Positions 8,753 through 42,563 of a stretch of 42,662 nucleotides of DNA are shown here, piece by piece. Both the position numbers and the translations under genes were made by a program. Every line of letters starts with the position of its first letter. The stretch's first letter is position 1. The notes beneath the pieces were generated by a model. The model worked only from the letters and a program-made list of their open reading frames with translations. It was not told where the DNA came from and did not search any database. Origin of the DNA: a virus (Duplodnaviria > Heunggongvirae > Uroviricota > Caudoviricetes); the IMG/VR virus record IMGVR_UViG_3300046011_008537; one strand, given 5' to 3'.

Positions 8753-11665
8753 TTATGCTTCATGAGTATTGGTTCTCCACATATTGCCTTCTTCCATCAT
8801 TTTTATAGTTGGGTCGTCATTTCTAACAGGAGGCACTGATTTTGCTACCCCAGGATTATTTCTTGGAGGAGCAGCAGCTTGTTGCTGTGCTTGTTGAGGA
8901 GCTGTTTGGGTATTTCCCCCTCCTTGTTTCATATTTTCAATACCTTCTAGGTATTCCTTGCTTCCTGTAATATTATTACGCCTTTCATTTAACGCTCCCA
9001 TTTCCGTACTAATATCTTTTATGCGGTCTTCGTCTTTATTAAATTGTTCTCCGCTAACATTAACTGCCATACTTATGTTTTCGCGTTCGCTTTTTAAACT
9101 AGCCTTTTGCGCATCAATATCCCCAACTTCAGCTTGCATATCATCCATTTTAGAATTAGGAACTGGAGATGCTTTATTAGTCGACAACTTTTCTTCATTA
9201 GTTTTAGCACGGTCAGCAGATAATTTATCTTGTCTTTCGTGTATGCTATCTGTATCTTCGTCAAAAAATTCATATTTTGTTGAATTCATTTTATCAACTG
9301 CATCATTTAATAAATCAACTTGAGATTTATTATTATCTGGTCCAGTTGTATTTGTTACATTAAGTTTTTCTGAATCAGGAACATCGCTGTATGAGACAGG
9401 ATTTTCTTGACTGTTTGTTTCTGTATTTAATGGAAAATTATTACTTTCATCTGGGTTATAAGATGCATTAATAAAACCTGTATTATTTGGTTTTTCTATT
9501 TTAGTTATTGGTGTTGATGTTTTAGATTTTGATGCAGTTTGTATTTCATCAGATGGAGCATCCCCTACTTTTTTTCCATATGTCGCATAGTGATCAGCTA
9601 AAGCTTTTCCATATCTAGAACTAGTTGCATACCCAGAACTGCCCATCTCAGCAATAGCTTGCTCTGGGGTTTGAGCTTTTAATGCTTTATCGTATCTTTT
9701 AATTTTATTTTTCTCTAGAAAGTCAAATCTATCTTTAACAGAATCTTCTTCGGATTTATATCCTCTAAATCTAGATTTTTCTTTTGACATTTTACCGTTT
9801 CGTTCTTCTGGTGATGATAATTCACCAGTAGGGTCTGTAGTTCCTTGCCCTTTACCTGAATATTTTATACCGAATAAATTATTTTTAGGAACGTGATGCC
9901 CTCCTCCAGTCTCTTCTATGCTTTGTGATGCAGCTAAGTGAGCTTGCGCTTCCGGATTTTCTAAACCTCTTTGTTTTGCTTCTTTTAAAGCTAAGTTGTA
10001 AACTTTATCGTAATGTTCTTGATAATCTTTATGAGGGTTTTTAGATTTATTCCCCTTAATCGGCTCAGCAGTTTTTTCTGACCCACTAGCTGCTCCAGAA
10101 TAAGCTAAACCTGCAGCTGCAGCTCCACCAACAGCCACTCCTTTCAGAACTTTACCAACAGGAATTTTACTTAATACTTTACTCCAAATTCCTGAGCTTT
10201 TTTCGGATTCTTCTTTGTTTAAATCTACGCCCTCTCTTTCATCGCCACCGAAAATTGGAGATGCGGAACCTCCTCCGCCGCCACCGCCTTCGTTTTGTCT
10301 TGCACGTAAATTTTCAGAAGATAAATCTCTAGCAATATCTTGTTGAGATTGACCCTTAACCATAGCTGATACGTCTTTGGAAATTCCAACTACAGTGTCA
10401 TATGTTTTAGATAATATACTATAGATACTGTTTAAAACTTCAACGGCAGTTTTACCCGACATATCACCGCTACCAAAATGACTTTCTCCAGTTGTTCCAG
10501 AATCTCCTCCAGAGGGCATTGAACTTAATGTAGCTTCAGCTGAATTACCTGCTGGCATTAGAGCTCCCATACCTCCTACGACACCTCTAAATGGAGAACT
10601 ACTGCTACTTCCAACATATGCTCCTAGTGCTGCTCCAGGAATTTTTTCTCCATACTCACCAAGTAATTCTTTGCCTTTATTTTTTATTTTATCCCATACA
10701 CTTTCTTCTGTCGTGCCTTCTATAGCACCTTTTAATATATTTCCAGCTTCATCTACTAATCCAGGAAACTTTTCTGTTCCTGCGTCAACCAATTCTTGAG
10801 CTTTATTTTTTGCAGCAAGTTGATCTTCTTCTGATAATGTATTGTAAATTCCAGCTCCGATTCCAGTAGCAGCAGCTCCATACATGCCACCTTTAAGTAC
10901 ACTTTTTCCTAATGTTTTTCCTTCTGATAAAACTTGACGCCCAACAAATTTTCCGGCACCTGCTGCAGCGCCTCCTGCTTTATCTCCCATCCATTCTAAA
11001 GTTCTTCTGATATATCCTTTTTTATTTGGAGTAGTTTCGTCTTTAACTTCTTCTTTGGCTTTTTCAACTAATTTTTCTGTATTACTTTTAAATGGCGTAG
11101 ATTGTTTTCCTGCTTGCTGTCTTTGTTGCTGTACATATTCCTGAGCTTTTTTCTGTGCTTCTGCTTCTTTTTGAGCAGTTGCTGCAGCTTTAGCTTCATC
11201 TGCCAATTCAGTTTCGCTTTTAAATACATTACTATATTTTTTTAAAGAAGGAAGTTTTGATCCAATTGCTTCTGCTCCTCCTTTAAATATAGATCCACCA
11301 AGTTTTAACCCCCCTTTAACAGCAGCTCCACCAACAGCAAGTCCTGCGACATCAGTACCAAAAGAAATTAATGCTTTTCTTTGATTATCAATAATTTGTT
11401 GGTATTCTTTTTGACCTCCAGAAGCTCCGCCTAATTGAGCTGCTTCAACAAATCTTTGAGCATCATCTGCATTTGAAATCTTTTTTAATTGCTCTTGTTG
11501 TCTTGAGGTAAGCAAATTTGCTTTTGTTTCTCTATCAACAATATGTTGTCGTTCTACGCTATTCTTTTGAACCCTAGATAATTCTTCTTTTGTTTTATCG
11601 TATGCGCCAACAGCAAAATCTTTTGCGCTATCTAAAAATGATGAACCTGAATTATTATTTTCCAT
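8753..11665 (-). CDS. gp29-like hub/tape-measure-type protein with a GH73 (glucosaminidase/FlgJ-like) domain
   Basis: 970 aa, Ala/Gly/Lys-rich with glycine-zipper segments; ASQSIEETG...NNLFGIK...FRGY...SV.D...GYATSSRY at about 9580-10020; downstream of gp26 and the gp51-like ORF. Confidence 0.7.
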   Translation of the reverse strand: MENNNSGSSFLDSAKDFAVGAYDKTKEELSRVQKNSVERQHIVDRETKANLLTSRQQEQLKKISNADDAQRFVEAAQLGGASGGQKEYQQIIDNQRKALISFGTDVAGLAVGGAAVKGGLKLGGSIFKGGAEAIGSKLPSLKKYSNVFKSETELADEAKAAATAQKEAEAQKKAQEYVQQQRQQAGKQSTPFKSNTEKLVEKAKEEVKDETTPNKKGYIRRTLEWMGDKAGGAAAGAGKFVGRQVLSEGKTLGKSVLKGGMYGAAATGIGAGIYNTLSEEDQLAAKNKAQELVDAGTEKFPGLVDEAGNILKGAIEGTTEESVWDKIKNKGKELLGEYGEKIPGAALGAYVGSSSSSPFRGVVGGMGALMPAGNSAEATLSSMPSGGDSGTTGESHFGSGDMSGKTAVEVLNSIYSILSKTYDTVVGISKDVSAMVKGQSQQDIARDLSSENLRARQNEGGGGGGGSASPIFGGDEREGVDLNKEESEKSSGIWSKVLSKIPVGKVLKGVAVGGAAAAGLAYSGAASGSEKTAEPIKGNKSKNPHKDYQEHYDKVYNLALKEAKQRGLENPEAQAHLAASQSIEETGGGHHVPKNNLFGIKYSGKGQGTTDPTGELSSPEERNGKMSKEKSRFRGYKSEEDSVKDRFDFLEKNKIKRYDKALKAQTPEQAIAEMGSSGYATSSRYGKALADHYATYGKKVGDAPSDEIQTASKSKTSTPITKIEKPNNTGFINASYNPDESNNFPLNTETNSQENPVSYSDVPDSEKLNVTNTTGPDNNKSQVDLLNDAVDKMNSTKYEFFDEDTDSIHERQDKLSADRAKTNEEKLSTNKASPVPNSKMDDMQAEVGDIDAQKASLKSERENISMAVNVSGEQFNKDEDRIKDISTEMGALNERRNNITGSKEYLEGIENMKQGGGNTQTAPQQAQQQAAAPPRNNPGVAKSVPPVRNDDPTIKMMEEGNMWRTNTHEA

Positions 11666-11668
11666 TTA

Positions 11669-11809
11669 TTAAATATTCCTATTAGCTTCTTGCTGCTTAC
11701 GTTTCTCTTCTTTTTCTTTTAAATACTGTATTAATAAACCTATATAAATTTCCCTTTCCCAAGGGATCATGTCTTCCAGCTCAGTTAAACTATACTTATG
11801 GTGTTGCAT
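11669..11809 (-). CDS. gp51-like baseplate hub assembly protein (46 aa from its ATG; not in the ORF track)
   Basis: My translation: MQHHKYSLTELEDMIPWEREIYIGLLIQYLKEKEEKRKQQEANRNI*. The frame stays open upstream to 11872. Confidence 0.8.
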   Translation of the reverse strand: MQHHKYSLTELEDMIPWEREIYIGLLIQYLKEKEEKRKQQEANRNI

Positions 11810-11859
11810 TAATGAAAAGTTAGTTTTATAATAAGTTGTAAGATTAACATTACCAAGAA

Positions 11860-12585
11860 TTAGATAAAAAAATCAAAAATATCTCTTACTTCAATATGAT
11901 GATCAAAACCGCATTTTACACATACAATATCTAATTTTTTAATTATTTTAGGCTCATTAGCAAAGAATTCTTCTATTTTTAAATATTGTTCAATTGGTAA
12001 ATCGCCCAACCATGCTACAATATTTTGTACTGGTATATCTTTTGTATTATATACTGAATTTTCATCATAAATAAACTCAACATTTCTTGCAATAATTTCA
12101 AGCGTTTCTTCTGGAGTAGGAATCTTATCTCCAATTTTATTATGTTCTAATCTTTGATATTTTAACTTTAATCCAACTTTATCTGAAACTTCAATAGTAG
12201 AAGAAATATCAGATTTAGTAGTTTCCAATTCTGTTAATAGATTTAAATCGTAATCCATTACATTATTACATGTTCTTCCATCTTCTAATATATTTTCGCA
12301 TCTATATTTTAATTCAACAATTTCCGACTCAGATCTTGCTCGTAATTGATAAAATAAAAATTCAGTATCGCTGATTGATAACTCTTCAGTATCAATTGAA
12401 TCTAAAGTACAATTTGAGATTATTTGTTTTATTGCATCTACTAATGTATTTGGGTCGCCAGATTCTTTTCCCATTGCTAAAATTTTTTGTTCTCTGACAG
12501 TATATGGTCTGTATTTTACTGTTAATTCTGAAACAGGTAATTTGACTGTATATACTGGCGATTCAATTTTTGGTAAGAAACTCAT
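11860..12585 (-). CDS. gp26: Baseplate hub assembly protein gp26
   Basis: LPKIESPVY...LP.S...YRPYTVREQKIL...D.EFLF.QLRARS.SE; C-terminal CxxC and DFF. Confidence 0.9.
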   Translation of the reverse strand: MSFLPKIESPVYTVKLPVSELTVKYRPYTVREQKILAMGKESGDPNTLVDAIKQIISNCTLDSIDTEELSISDTEFLFYQLRARSESEIVELKYRCENILEDGRTCNNVMDYDLNLLTELETTKSDISSTIEVSDKVGLKLKYQRLEHNKIGDKIPTPEETLEIIARNVEFIYDENSVYNTKDIPVQNIVAWLGDLPIEQYLKIEEFFANEPKIIKKLDIVCVKCGFDHHIEVRDIFDFFI

Positions 12586-12593
12586 ATTAAATT

Positions 12594-13400
12594 TTATCCT
12601 CTTTTATATGGTGCAGGTGATGAAACGTTAAAATTTGATAACACTGATGTTGCAGCTAAAGGATTTCCGCTTTTAAATGCTCCTTTTATGGTATTTATTG
12701 TGGCTGCAGTTTGAATCGCTGTACCAACTAATTCCATTAATGGGCTTGCAGAATAGTTACCTGATTCTTGTACTTCAAAAAATTCATATTGATATTCAGT
12801 ATATGCAAATGTTACATTTAATGATTGTGCTTGATTTTGAGCGCTCCAAGCAAGTGGAACTTGATTTATTCCTATAGGAAACGCATCAAATAACTTAACT
12901 TGTACAAAAGGTTTTCCATCTATAGTATATTGAGTTATTACTATATCTCTAACATAATCTTTTTTATACTGTACATTGTAAGTTACATCGCTGCTTTGTT
13001 TTTCCCACGAAGCTTTCATTAAATTATTTCTGCCAGTTATAGTTGAAATCCAATTAAAAAAAACTCTTCTTGTAGCTTCAACTCCAGCTCCATGAGTATA
13101 AAATGATAAGGTTACGTCATTATATCCAGTCATAACTGCGAACTTTTCATTTACTCCATATATTTTTTGATTTACTGTTGCAGTGGATTCTCCAGGTAAT
13201 TCTGCTGTGTGACAATAAAATTTTATATGGTTATTTATCTCTGTGCCTTTACTTGGTATCGTAACATCGAAATATGCAGTTCTACCAACATCATATTTCA
13301 ATAGATAATGTAATGCATCTTGATACTTTCCATCGCTGGTTTTTGGTCCAGAACCGCTGAATAAACTTGTTATTCCAGCAAAACTATCCATTAATGCCAT
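12594..13400 (-). CDS. Tail-tube-fold protein (gp19/gp54-like tail tube initiator)
   Basis: YC..AELPG...VTLSFY...FFNW...LFDAFP......LAW...LNVTFAY; position between gp2 and gp26. Confidence 0.7.
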   Translation of the reverse strand: MALMDSFAGITSLFSGSGPKTSDGKYQDALHYLLKYDVGRTAYFDVTIPSKGTEINNHIKFYCHTAELPGESTATVNQKIYGVNEKFAVMTGYNDVTLSFYTHGAGVEATRRVFFNWISTITGRNNLMKASWEKQSSDVTYNVQYKKDYVRDIVITQYTIDGKPFVQVKLFDAFPIGINQVPLAWSAQNQAQSLNVTFAYTEYQYEFFEVQESGNYSASPLMELVGTAIQTAATINTIKGAFKSGNPLAATSVLSNFNVSSPAPYKRG

Positions 13401-41695: not shown

Positions 41696-41968
41696 ATGAA
41701 AAAATATGAATATACATATAAAATAAAAGATATTAATATAGCCGAAAATGCTCTTCTTGTTGAATATATGGCTACAGATGAATCTTTAACATCATATACT
41801 CTTCATATTCCTTCCTATATACTGAATGAAGATGAAACGAGAAAAACTATTGACGAAGTTATTAAATTTTGCGCTCCTCATGGTAGATGGGAATCTCAAG
41901 AAATTTTAGTTGAACAATATAATGATATTTTACATAAAACTGAACTGGTGCCTATACAAAATGCTTGA
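41696..41968 (+). CDS. Hypothetical fibre-associated small protein
   Basis: 90-aa ORF with AAGGA upstream, between the collagen-like gene and the oxygenase. Confidence 0.6.
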   Translation: MKKYEYTYKIKDINIAENALLVEYMATDESLTSYTLHIPSYILNEDETRKTIDEVIKFCAPHGRWESQEILVEQYNDILHKTELVPIQNA

Positions 41969-42563
41969 AATACAAAATAATGGTATTGCTATATTTGACA
42001 ATGCCTTTAGTGACGAATATTGCGATCAAGTTATAAATTTTTTTGAATGGTCGCAAAAAAATAATAGAACATGGAATAGATTACAATCAGAAAATGCTCA
42101 AGAAATATATAAAAATGATATATCAGCTTCGCTGCATGCATCAATAAATGAAAGATATTTTTCATCAGATAACACCAATTTAGTTGCTGAATTTAATGAT
42201 ACGTTTTTTGATGTTTGGTATGCAGAATATTTAAAATATTTTTCGACATTAAATACTGCAGAAAAGCATGGTATTTTTGCACACAAAATACAAAAAACTT
42301 CTCCTGGAGGAGGATATCATTTATGGCATTTCGAAGCCGGAGGATTAATTACTTCCAGAAGATTAGGTGCATATATTTTATATTTAAACGACATTGATGT
42401 TGGGGGAGAAACTGAATTTCTATATCTTCGTCAACGAATAGAACCGAAAAAAGGAAGATTGGTAATTTTTCCTTCTGGATACGTATTTACACATAGAGGA
42501 AACCCTCCGTTAACTAGCGATAAATATATAATGACGGGTTGGTTGGAGTATATGGGAGGATGA
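41961..42563 (+). CDS. 2OG-Fe(II) oxygenase (prolyl-hydroxylase-like)
   Basis: KIQKT.PGGGYH.WHFE, YILYLND...GGET.F, G..VIFP, H(THRG)...KYIMTGW; start taken as ATG 41961. Confidence 0.9.
   Translation: MLEIQNNGIAIFDNAFSDEYCDQVINFFEWSQKNNRTWNRLQSENAQEIYKNDISASLHASINERYFSSDNTNLVAEFNDTFFDVWYAEYLKYFSTLNTAEKHGIFAHKIQKTSPGGGYHLWHFEAGGLITSRRLGAYILYLNDIDVGGETEFLYLRQRIEPKKGRLVIFPSGYVFTHRGNPPLTSDKYIMTGWLEYMGG

Follow-up and report, generated by a model that had tools for sequence, protein, structure and literature searches.

In 2004, Xu, Hendrix and Duda reportedly described a -1 frameshift that is conserved among the genes for tail assembly chaperones, with gpG/gpGT of phage lambda as the type case. 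In phage P2, whose tail is contractile, E and E+E' are produced by a -1 shift at the slippery sequence T TTT TTG in a tail assembly chaperone gene that precedes the tape measure gene. To our knowledge, the T4-like phages are an apparent exception to this near-universal G/GT frameshift of the long-tailed phages, and the roles attributed to T4 gp26 and gp51 ('hub assembly catalyst') have remained vague for decades. Here we describe the gp26-gp51 locus of IMGVR_UViG_3300046011_008537, an IMG/VR record of a virus of the Caudoviricetes (42,662 nucleotides; this whole stretch of DNA is called the window). We propose that gp26 of this T4-like freshwater phage is very probably a recoded gene, in which a -1 slip on a run of T's at its 3' end yields a short and a long protein, the latter ending in the C-terminal module of gp51. 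Because this extension would be entered by a -1 slip from gp26, the small open reading frame (ORF) of 46 codons known as 'gp51' is highly unlikely to be a separate gene.

The zero-frame product of the window gene matches PF12322 over residues 10-240 (E 1.2e-46; 159.6 bits against a curated cut-off of 24.5) and phrog_150 (E 5.8e-50). Read on the minus strand, the gene ends in AGA GAT ATT TTT GAT TTT TTT ATC TAA, and the -1 frame is open for 67 codons past the TGA that closes it just ahead of the heptamer, encoding FFYLILGNVNLTTYYKTNFSLMQHHKYSL...NRNI, to the TAA at 11671-11669. A first-pass annotation of this locus had claimed a slippery heptamer in the correct phase and a -1 frame that is closed immediately before it and open from it onward, and all of these features are present in the window sequence. 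The fusion of about 305 amino acids that it had put forward is computed as gp26 residues 1-240 plus residues 3-67 of the extension (65 amino acids), i.e., 305 amino acids. The junction peptide of this fusion is predicted to be DIFDFFYLILGNVNLTTYYK, with DIFDFF on the gp26 side of the junction and YLILGNVNLTTYYK on the extension side.

Runs of seven T's or seven A's are depleted about three-fold in the whole AT-rich window (23 versus 72 +/- 11 in dinucleotide-preserving shuffles). Two of its 37 ORFs of at least 100 amino acids combine an in-phase X XXY YYZ heptamer with at least 50 open codons in the -1 frame, and the gp26 heptamer is the only one of the two at the 3' end of a gene. This depletion, and its position as the sole 3'-end case in the window, make it unlikely that the gp26 site arose by chance. 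The other ORF (41910-42563, plus strand) has T TTA AAA at about 42231 with 55 open -1 codons; this heptamer stands 110 codons ahead of the stop and is probably due to chance.

Most ribosomes would read GAU UUU UUU AUC UAA and release the short form of 241 amino acids. Some ribosomes would slip by -1 on U UUU UUU, where the tRNA-Phe molecules in the P and A sites could re-pair with UUU UUU, and would then add 65 codons of the -1 frame, giving a 305-amino-acid protein that consists of gp26(1-240) and the gp51 C-terminal module. The gp26 domain may serve the hub or tape-measure protein in the manner of a tail assembly chaperone, the C-terminal module, which is helical and carried by a minority of the molecules, may provide a link to another tail or hub partner, and neither form would be expected to end up in the virion. 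We infer the slip itself, its efficiency, the partners of the two products and the identity of the downstream gene.

The relatives of the window phage lend this proposal strong support. Junctions were collected from S-PM2, S-WAM1, P-SSM2, Melnitz, Mosig, Vibrio phage nt-1 and Sinorhizobium phage phiN3 and from two scans of IMG/VR; taken together, these sources gave 104 loci with both parts and 96 distinct junction sequences. They span cyanophages, pelagiphage-like phages, Kyanoviridae, nt-1 (Straboviridae), phiN3 and IMG/VR contigs, with G+C contents of gp26 that range from 23 to 53%. Alignment of the 3' ends of gp26, in which the first-pass annotation expected a conserved heptamer and phase, bore out this expectation: the extension is in the -1 frame relative to gp26 in 96 of 96 junctions, and the heptamer is TTTTTTC in 55, TTTTTTT in 39 and TTTTTTA in two. 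Heptamer positions 0-5 are T in all 96, with neighbouring zero-frame third positions conserved at 32-68%. In the zero frame, the two Phe codons are preceded by AGT, GAT, AAT, TCT, GCT or GGT, a codon that thus always ends in T although five different amino acids are encoded; elsewhere in the same genes, the T-ending codons account for 36-77% of the use for these five amino acids. Likewise, the first Phe codon is always TTT, compared with 71% elsewhere, and two loci keep the T-run despite a change of the zero-frame dipeptide from FF to FL. The zero-frame stop follows the two Phe codons within 0-3 codons in 95 junctions, and in 24 loci the -1 frame has a closing stop 0-1 codon ahead of the heptamer. 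The T4-type two-gene phages provide a negative control, as the end of their gene 26 reads GAG/GAA TTC TTT, TTC ATT, TTT ATT or TTA TTT and the heptamer is gone. Among deposited phage records, 552 match the -1 arrangement and 1375 match the T4-type in-frame long form.

Some sequencing chemistries tend to make errors in homopolymer runs, and the frame break could accordingly be a sequencing or assembly error, or the mark of a decaying gene, the real gene being a single in-frame long form. The same frame relation is, however, found in every junction, from isolates as well as from many metagenomes, and the window sequence is reproduced without insertions or deletions in contigs assembled from over 20 independent runs. 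In addition, a stop just past the site in nearly all junctions and a -1 frame closed just upstream in many of them form the signature of two maintained products. We consider an error or a decaying gene extremely improbable. A variant strain from a lake metagenome keeps the T-run and carries synonymous changes on both sides of it, at 11860, 11863 and 11875. As judged from window positions 11400-12700, the phage is abundant in lake-water metagenomes of many studies, and pieces of the same region are also found in contigs of two freshwater metatranscriptome runs of a single sample, which by itself is no proof of transcription.

The conservation of the junction would apply equally to transcriptional slippage, in which RNA polymerase adds one U on the T-run, such that the mRNA reads into the same extension and gives an identical gp26-gp51C product. 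The site is a homopolymer, with seven T's in the window and eight in Melnitz and some of the IMG/VR loci, and the window is without a downstream RNA stimulator. Efficient slippage of bacterial RNA polymerase is known for runs of about 8-9 or more, of which the seven T's of the window and the six T's of the 55 TTTTTTC junctions fall short. Because most relatives have only six T's (the 55 with TTTTTTC and the two with TTTTTTA), transcriptional slippage is less likely. Moreover, the run is always in the exact X XXY YYZ phase, and some relatives possess strong hairpins 4-10 nucleotides downstream of it, which are typical of ribosomal frameshifting. A contig from an RNA library also crosses the site without an insertion, an observation of almost no weight given a depth of about 2 and the tendency of contigs to drop rare variants. 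Transcriptional slippage is thus judged improbable.

The hairpins that start 4-10 nucleotides past the heptamer are found in S-PM2 (z -3.7), S-WAM1 (z -5.1), nt-1 (z -4.9) and phiN3 (z -4.0). P-SSM2 likewise has a downstream hairpin, and the z values of these five relatives range from -3.3 to -5.1. The stimulatory element, if any, is lineage-specific. Upstream of the heptamer, most relatives have GA(A/G)GG at a distance of 9-10 nucleotides (positions -14 to -10), with G at position -11 in 96% of the relatives; the spacing is that of the Shine-Dalgarno-like stimulator of dnaX, but the motif coincides with conserved Glu-Gly codons. In place of the Shine-Dalgarno-like GAGG or GAAGG, the window has a degenerate AGAGAT at 11880-11886.

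The extension itself matches phrog_634 ('baseplate hub assembly catalyst') with an E value of 6e-29, its residues 2-66 aligning to profile positions 56-120 of 121, and it also matches profile positions 231-280 of phrog_150, which are the last 50 positions of that profile. The match to phrog_634 takes in the 21 residues ahead of the Met encoded at 11809. Were gp51 a separate small gene, a protein of 46 amino acids would be made from this ATG, or by reinitiation after the gp26 stop, and no fusion would be formed. The ATG is present at 11809, the gene is annotated in this manner in Melnitz, Mosig, S-PM2, P-SSM2, nt-1 and phiN3, and about a quarter of the relatives have a start 2-6 codons from the heptamer, which is part of a TAATG in nt-1 and of a TGATG in phiN3. 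In the window, the ATG is the sole ATG, GTG or TTG within the first 34 codons of the extension, and it is not preceded by a visible Shine-Dalgarno sequence, in agreement with the first-pass annotation. With no start between the heptamer and codon 22, a free protein from an early start is not possible there. The Met is replaced by the non-start codons ATA, ATT, GTA or GTC (Ile or Val) in 10 of the 96 relative loci, including one from the window's own clade (L014, 66% gp26 identity), and in locus L065 the first start codon comes only at codon 34 of the extension. As to upstream starts that homologues may have of their own, which the first-pass annotation regarded as a possible objection, 40 of the 96 junctions have no ATG, GTG or TTG ahead of codon 20; the 27 that have a start 2-6 codons past the heptamer are discussed below.

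The sequence ahead of the Met, of which the YYKTNFSL stretch had been taken to be conserved in the family, carries a coding signature. For the 40 loci without a start ahead of codon 20, the information content is 3.16 bits per column over columns 1-21 versus 3.41 bits per column over columns 22-50. Codon constraint was assessed in 93 sequences in register over codons 5-20 of the extension, i.e., 16 of the 21 pre-Met codons. Differences amount to 0.446 at the third positions of the -1 frame versus 0.226 at the second positions. Of the differing codons, a share of 0.36 is synonymous in the -1 frame, against 0.13 and 0.07 in the two alternative frames, which stops interrupt in 69 and 86 of the 93 sequences. 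Because the pre-Met codons are conserved as coding sequence, many loci have no start there and a quarter of the loci have a -1 frame stop just ahead of the heptamer, the pre-Met stretch appears to be translated, and entry from gp26 at the T-run would be the sole economical way to reach it. The ATG at 11809 is most likely an internal Met and not a gene start. A separate gene also leaves unexplained both the invariant third-position T of the codon preceding the Phe codons and the loss of the T-run in the two-gene lineages, and T4 gp51 displays the module as a C-terminal extension of a gp26-type domain. We therefore regard a separate gene as very improbable. The view of the first-pass annotation that the stand-alone 46-amino-acid gene is wrongly annotated is upheld by the coding conservation ahead of the Met, by the loss of the Met in relatives and by the collinearity with T4 gp51.

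T4 gp26 and gp51 are chaperones of hub assembly, and gp51 is required for assembly yet absent from the particle (PMC3004832). T4 gp26 (208 amino acids) consists of PF12322 only. In T4 gp51 (249 amino acids), PF12322 covers residues 1-201 (E 3.9e-52), and residues 200-244 align to residues 2-47 of the window extension (BLASTP E 4e-6). In a joint alignment, F200 of the T4-type long forms falls in one invariant column with the C-terminal FF of the short forms and the FF at the N-terminus of the extensions, and the predicted 305-amino-acid fusion is collinear with full-length T4 gp51. These results make it quite likely that the long form corresponds to full-length T4 gp51 and the short form to T4 gp26. 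As T4 gp51 is made up of a gp26-type domain and the same C-terminal module, T4 possesses a paralogous gene of its own for each of the two forms. According to the first-pass annotation, T4 lacks the frameshift system because its genes 26 and 51 are divergent; the divergent genes and the missing slippery run are confirmed, but T4 does not simply lack the system, since gp51 itself is a gp26-type domain with the module attached. In cyanophages and marine vibriophages, gp51 is without its first ~200 amino acids, which was recorded in 2010 without an explanation (Sullivan et al., 2010; PMC3037559). The predicted frameshift would supply these ~200 missing N-terminal residues. In a tree of the short forms and the N-domains of the long forms, three clans meet at one node, a topology that does not date the T4-type duplication. 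In one T-even-like IMG/VR contig of the T4 type (L118, positions 1001-1746), the in-frame gp51 long form is split into ORF segments of 126 and 153 amino acids, a split that might be due to an error in sequencing, to a pseudogene or to a further case of recoding.

The structure of gp26 was modeled by AlphaFold (predicted local distance difference test score, pLDDT, 92.7) and compared exhaustively with 48,161 representative chains of the PDB by VIA-align. The top four matches are 3FGX (Rbstp2171, Z 8.1), 3KLU (YqbN, Z 7.2), 2OB9 (HK97, Z 6.9) and 5IR0 (PLE1, Z 5.8), and the fifth reaches only Z 4.4. All four fall on model residues 1-96 and cover 81-86 residues of chains that are 96-119 residues long, at 9-13% identity. 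These four structures are the solved tail assembly chaperones (PMC9603447, PMC12987554). In addition, a cluster of the AlphaFold DB described as 'Phage tail assembly protein' (111 amino acids) matches gp26 residues 9-85. Foldseek returned nothing for the gp26 model against the PDB at E <= 0.001, and a profile search of the PDB sequences found nothing relevant. The modeled N-domain of gp26 (residues 1-96) thus shows a moderate likeness to tail assembly chaperones. When a T4-type long form was modeled (pLDDT 95.5), its C-terminal module took the shape of four helices at residues 196-248. The gp26 model also brings together C96, C106, C222 and C225 from two distant segments, three of the four being conserved at >=90%, and several gp26 homologues weakly match zinc-ribbon Pfam families; the four residues resemble a zinc ribbon, and a structural zinc site seems likely in this gp26 family.

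By analogy, it is well supported that the gp26/gp51 pair would work like G/GT, while homology between the two pairs is an evenly balanced question. We would give the same even chance to the more specific proposition that gp26/gp51 are highly diverged true homologues of lambda G/GT and that the frameshift is ancestral to the whole T4 superfamily.

Several observations weigh against recoding of gp26 or against its likeness to the chaperones. The FF dipeptide is kept even in T4 gp26, and part of the T-run is therefore explained by the protein sequence alone. A start codon (ATG, GTG or TTG) is found 2-6 codons past the heptamer in 27 of the 96 relatives, in some of which it overlaps or adjoins the gp26 stop, and such relatives may additionally make a separate small protein by coupled reinitiation. 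Downstream of the window site, no significant RNA structure was found when 80-110 nucleotides were compared with shuffles (z 0.44; about 0 for the clade). The match to the chaperone fold is moderate (Z <= 8.1), the model of the T4-type long form finds the same chaperones only at a Z of about 3, and none of 68 gp26 homologues matches a Pfam tail-assembly-chaperone family at E <= 10, at which only PF12322 and zinc-ribbon noise were found. The claim of the first-pass annotation that gp26 and its fusion are the equivalents of G and GT thus stands with regard to the fold of the short form and the conserved site and frame, and is weakened by the moderate Z scores and the missing Pfam match. Finally, neither T4 gp29 nor any tape-measure family shows detectable similarity to the 970-amino-acid product of the downstream gene.

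The features of the locus are listed in Table 1. The upstream protein also matches PF06841 (Phage_T4_gp19) with an E value of 1.9e-4, which is below the Pfam cut-off, and prediction of a complex between the 67-amino-acid extension and this tube-fold protein (12597-13400) gave a score of 0.00, which bears neither way on the proposal. The downstream protein contains a run of seven Gly residues and long low-complexity stretches rich in Ala and Gly, with the glucosaminidase domain at its center; its PHROG and atlas matches cover this lytic domain only, and the atlas clusters closest to it consist of large phage proteins that carry lytic domains. We regard the protein as a candidate for a tape-measure or hub protein able to degrade the cell wall. 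The first-pass annotation had placed the frameshift just upstream of the tape measure gene: the next gene does start at 11665, and because similarity to T4 gp29 is not detectable, we infer its identity as a tape measure from its position and size, together with the embedded peptidoglycan hydrolase domain. In Melnitz, Mosig and phiN3, small ORFs lie between the frameshift gene and the large downstream gene.

Table 1. Positions of the gp26-gp51 features and of the adjoining genes in the window.
Feature	Position	Strand	Basis or remark
gp26 short form	11860..12585	minus	241-aa ORF, zero frame; PF12322, phrog_150
Putative slippery heptamer U UUU UUU	11866..11872	minus	X XXY YYZ phase; zero-frame codons GAT TTT TTT
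TGA closing the -1 frame directly 5' of the heptamer	11873..11875	minus	window sequence
gp26 stop TAA, one sense codon past the heptamer	11860..11862	minus	window sequence
-1 frame extension, 67 codons + stop; gp51 C-terminal module	11669..11872	minus	phrog_634, phrog_150
ATG, extension codon 22	11807..11809	minus	start of the stand-alone 44-47-aa gp51 in annotations of relatives
Upstream gene, 268 aa, tail-tube fold (gp54/gp48-like tail tube initiator)	12594..13400	minus	phrog_45, E 4e-24
Downstream gene, 970 aa, glucosaminidase domain at residues 573-696	8753..11665	minus	PF01832, E 3.1e-16

Frameshifting by -1 in tail assembly chaperone genes is a well-known phenomenon, but its occurrence in the gp26/gp51 family of the T4 superfamily seems not to have been published before. 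The literature searched contained no account of such a frameshift in gp26/gp51, and the annotations of the seven relatives contain no joined coding sequence. In the GenBank record of Acinetobacter phage Octan, the gp51 homologue is named 'tape measure protein assembly chaperone'; no paper behind this name was found. If correct, our proposal would explain why the 'gp51' of cyanophages and marine vibriophages has only about 20% of the length of T4 gp51, and would correct how this gene pair is annotated in many metagenomic contigs and at least some 550 deposited phage genomes. It would also suggest a testable function for two T4 genes, that of a tape-measure or hub chaperone with a short and a long form. 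It would further offer a case from nature in which two paralogous genes have taken the place of one recoded gene. If, in addition, gp26/gp51 are true homologues of G/GT and the frameshift is ancestral, T4 genes 26 and 51 would be a hard-wired G + GT pair that arose from a duplicate of the recoded gene with the long form fixed in frame, and the T4-like phages would build their tube and tape-measure complex by the chaperone logic of other long-tailed phages. Furthermore, an abundant, AT-rich and stimulator-poor U UUU UUU site would be added to the known bacterial frameshift signals.

Compared with lambda G/GT, the window locus is alike in its predicted short and C-terminally extended products, which would arise by a -1 slip on a heptamer lying in phase close to the 3' end of the gene, in its -1 ORF without start signals of its own, and in the position of the gene in the tail module, between a tube-fold gene and a very large gene. 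It differs in that its products belong to PF12322 and are twice the size of gpG, with extra beta-rich and zinc-ribbon-like parts, in that the zero-frame stop is found within 0-3 codons of the site and the downstream tape measure is only a candidate, and in that the T4 counterparts are assigned to hub assembly and not to tube assembly. The structurally characterized chaperones of HK97, YqbN, Rbstp2171 and PLE1 resemble the N-domain of the window gp26 but have no counterpart to its residues 97-241. With E/E+E' of P2, the window shares a U-rich heptamer, whereas the protein family and the overlap of the -1 ORF with the operon differ. In T4, gp51 has the same architecture as the predicted long form of the window, i.e., PF12322 and a helical C-terminal module joined at a conserved Phe. 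T4 and its enterobacterial, Acinetobacter and Aeromonas relatives, however, possess two divergent paralogous genes, with a gene 26 that is without the slippery run, whereas the window possesses one gene and a predicted frameshift.

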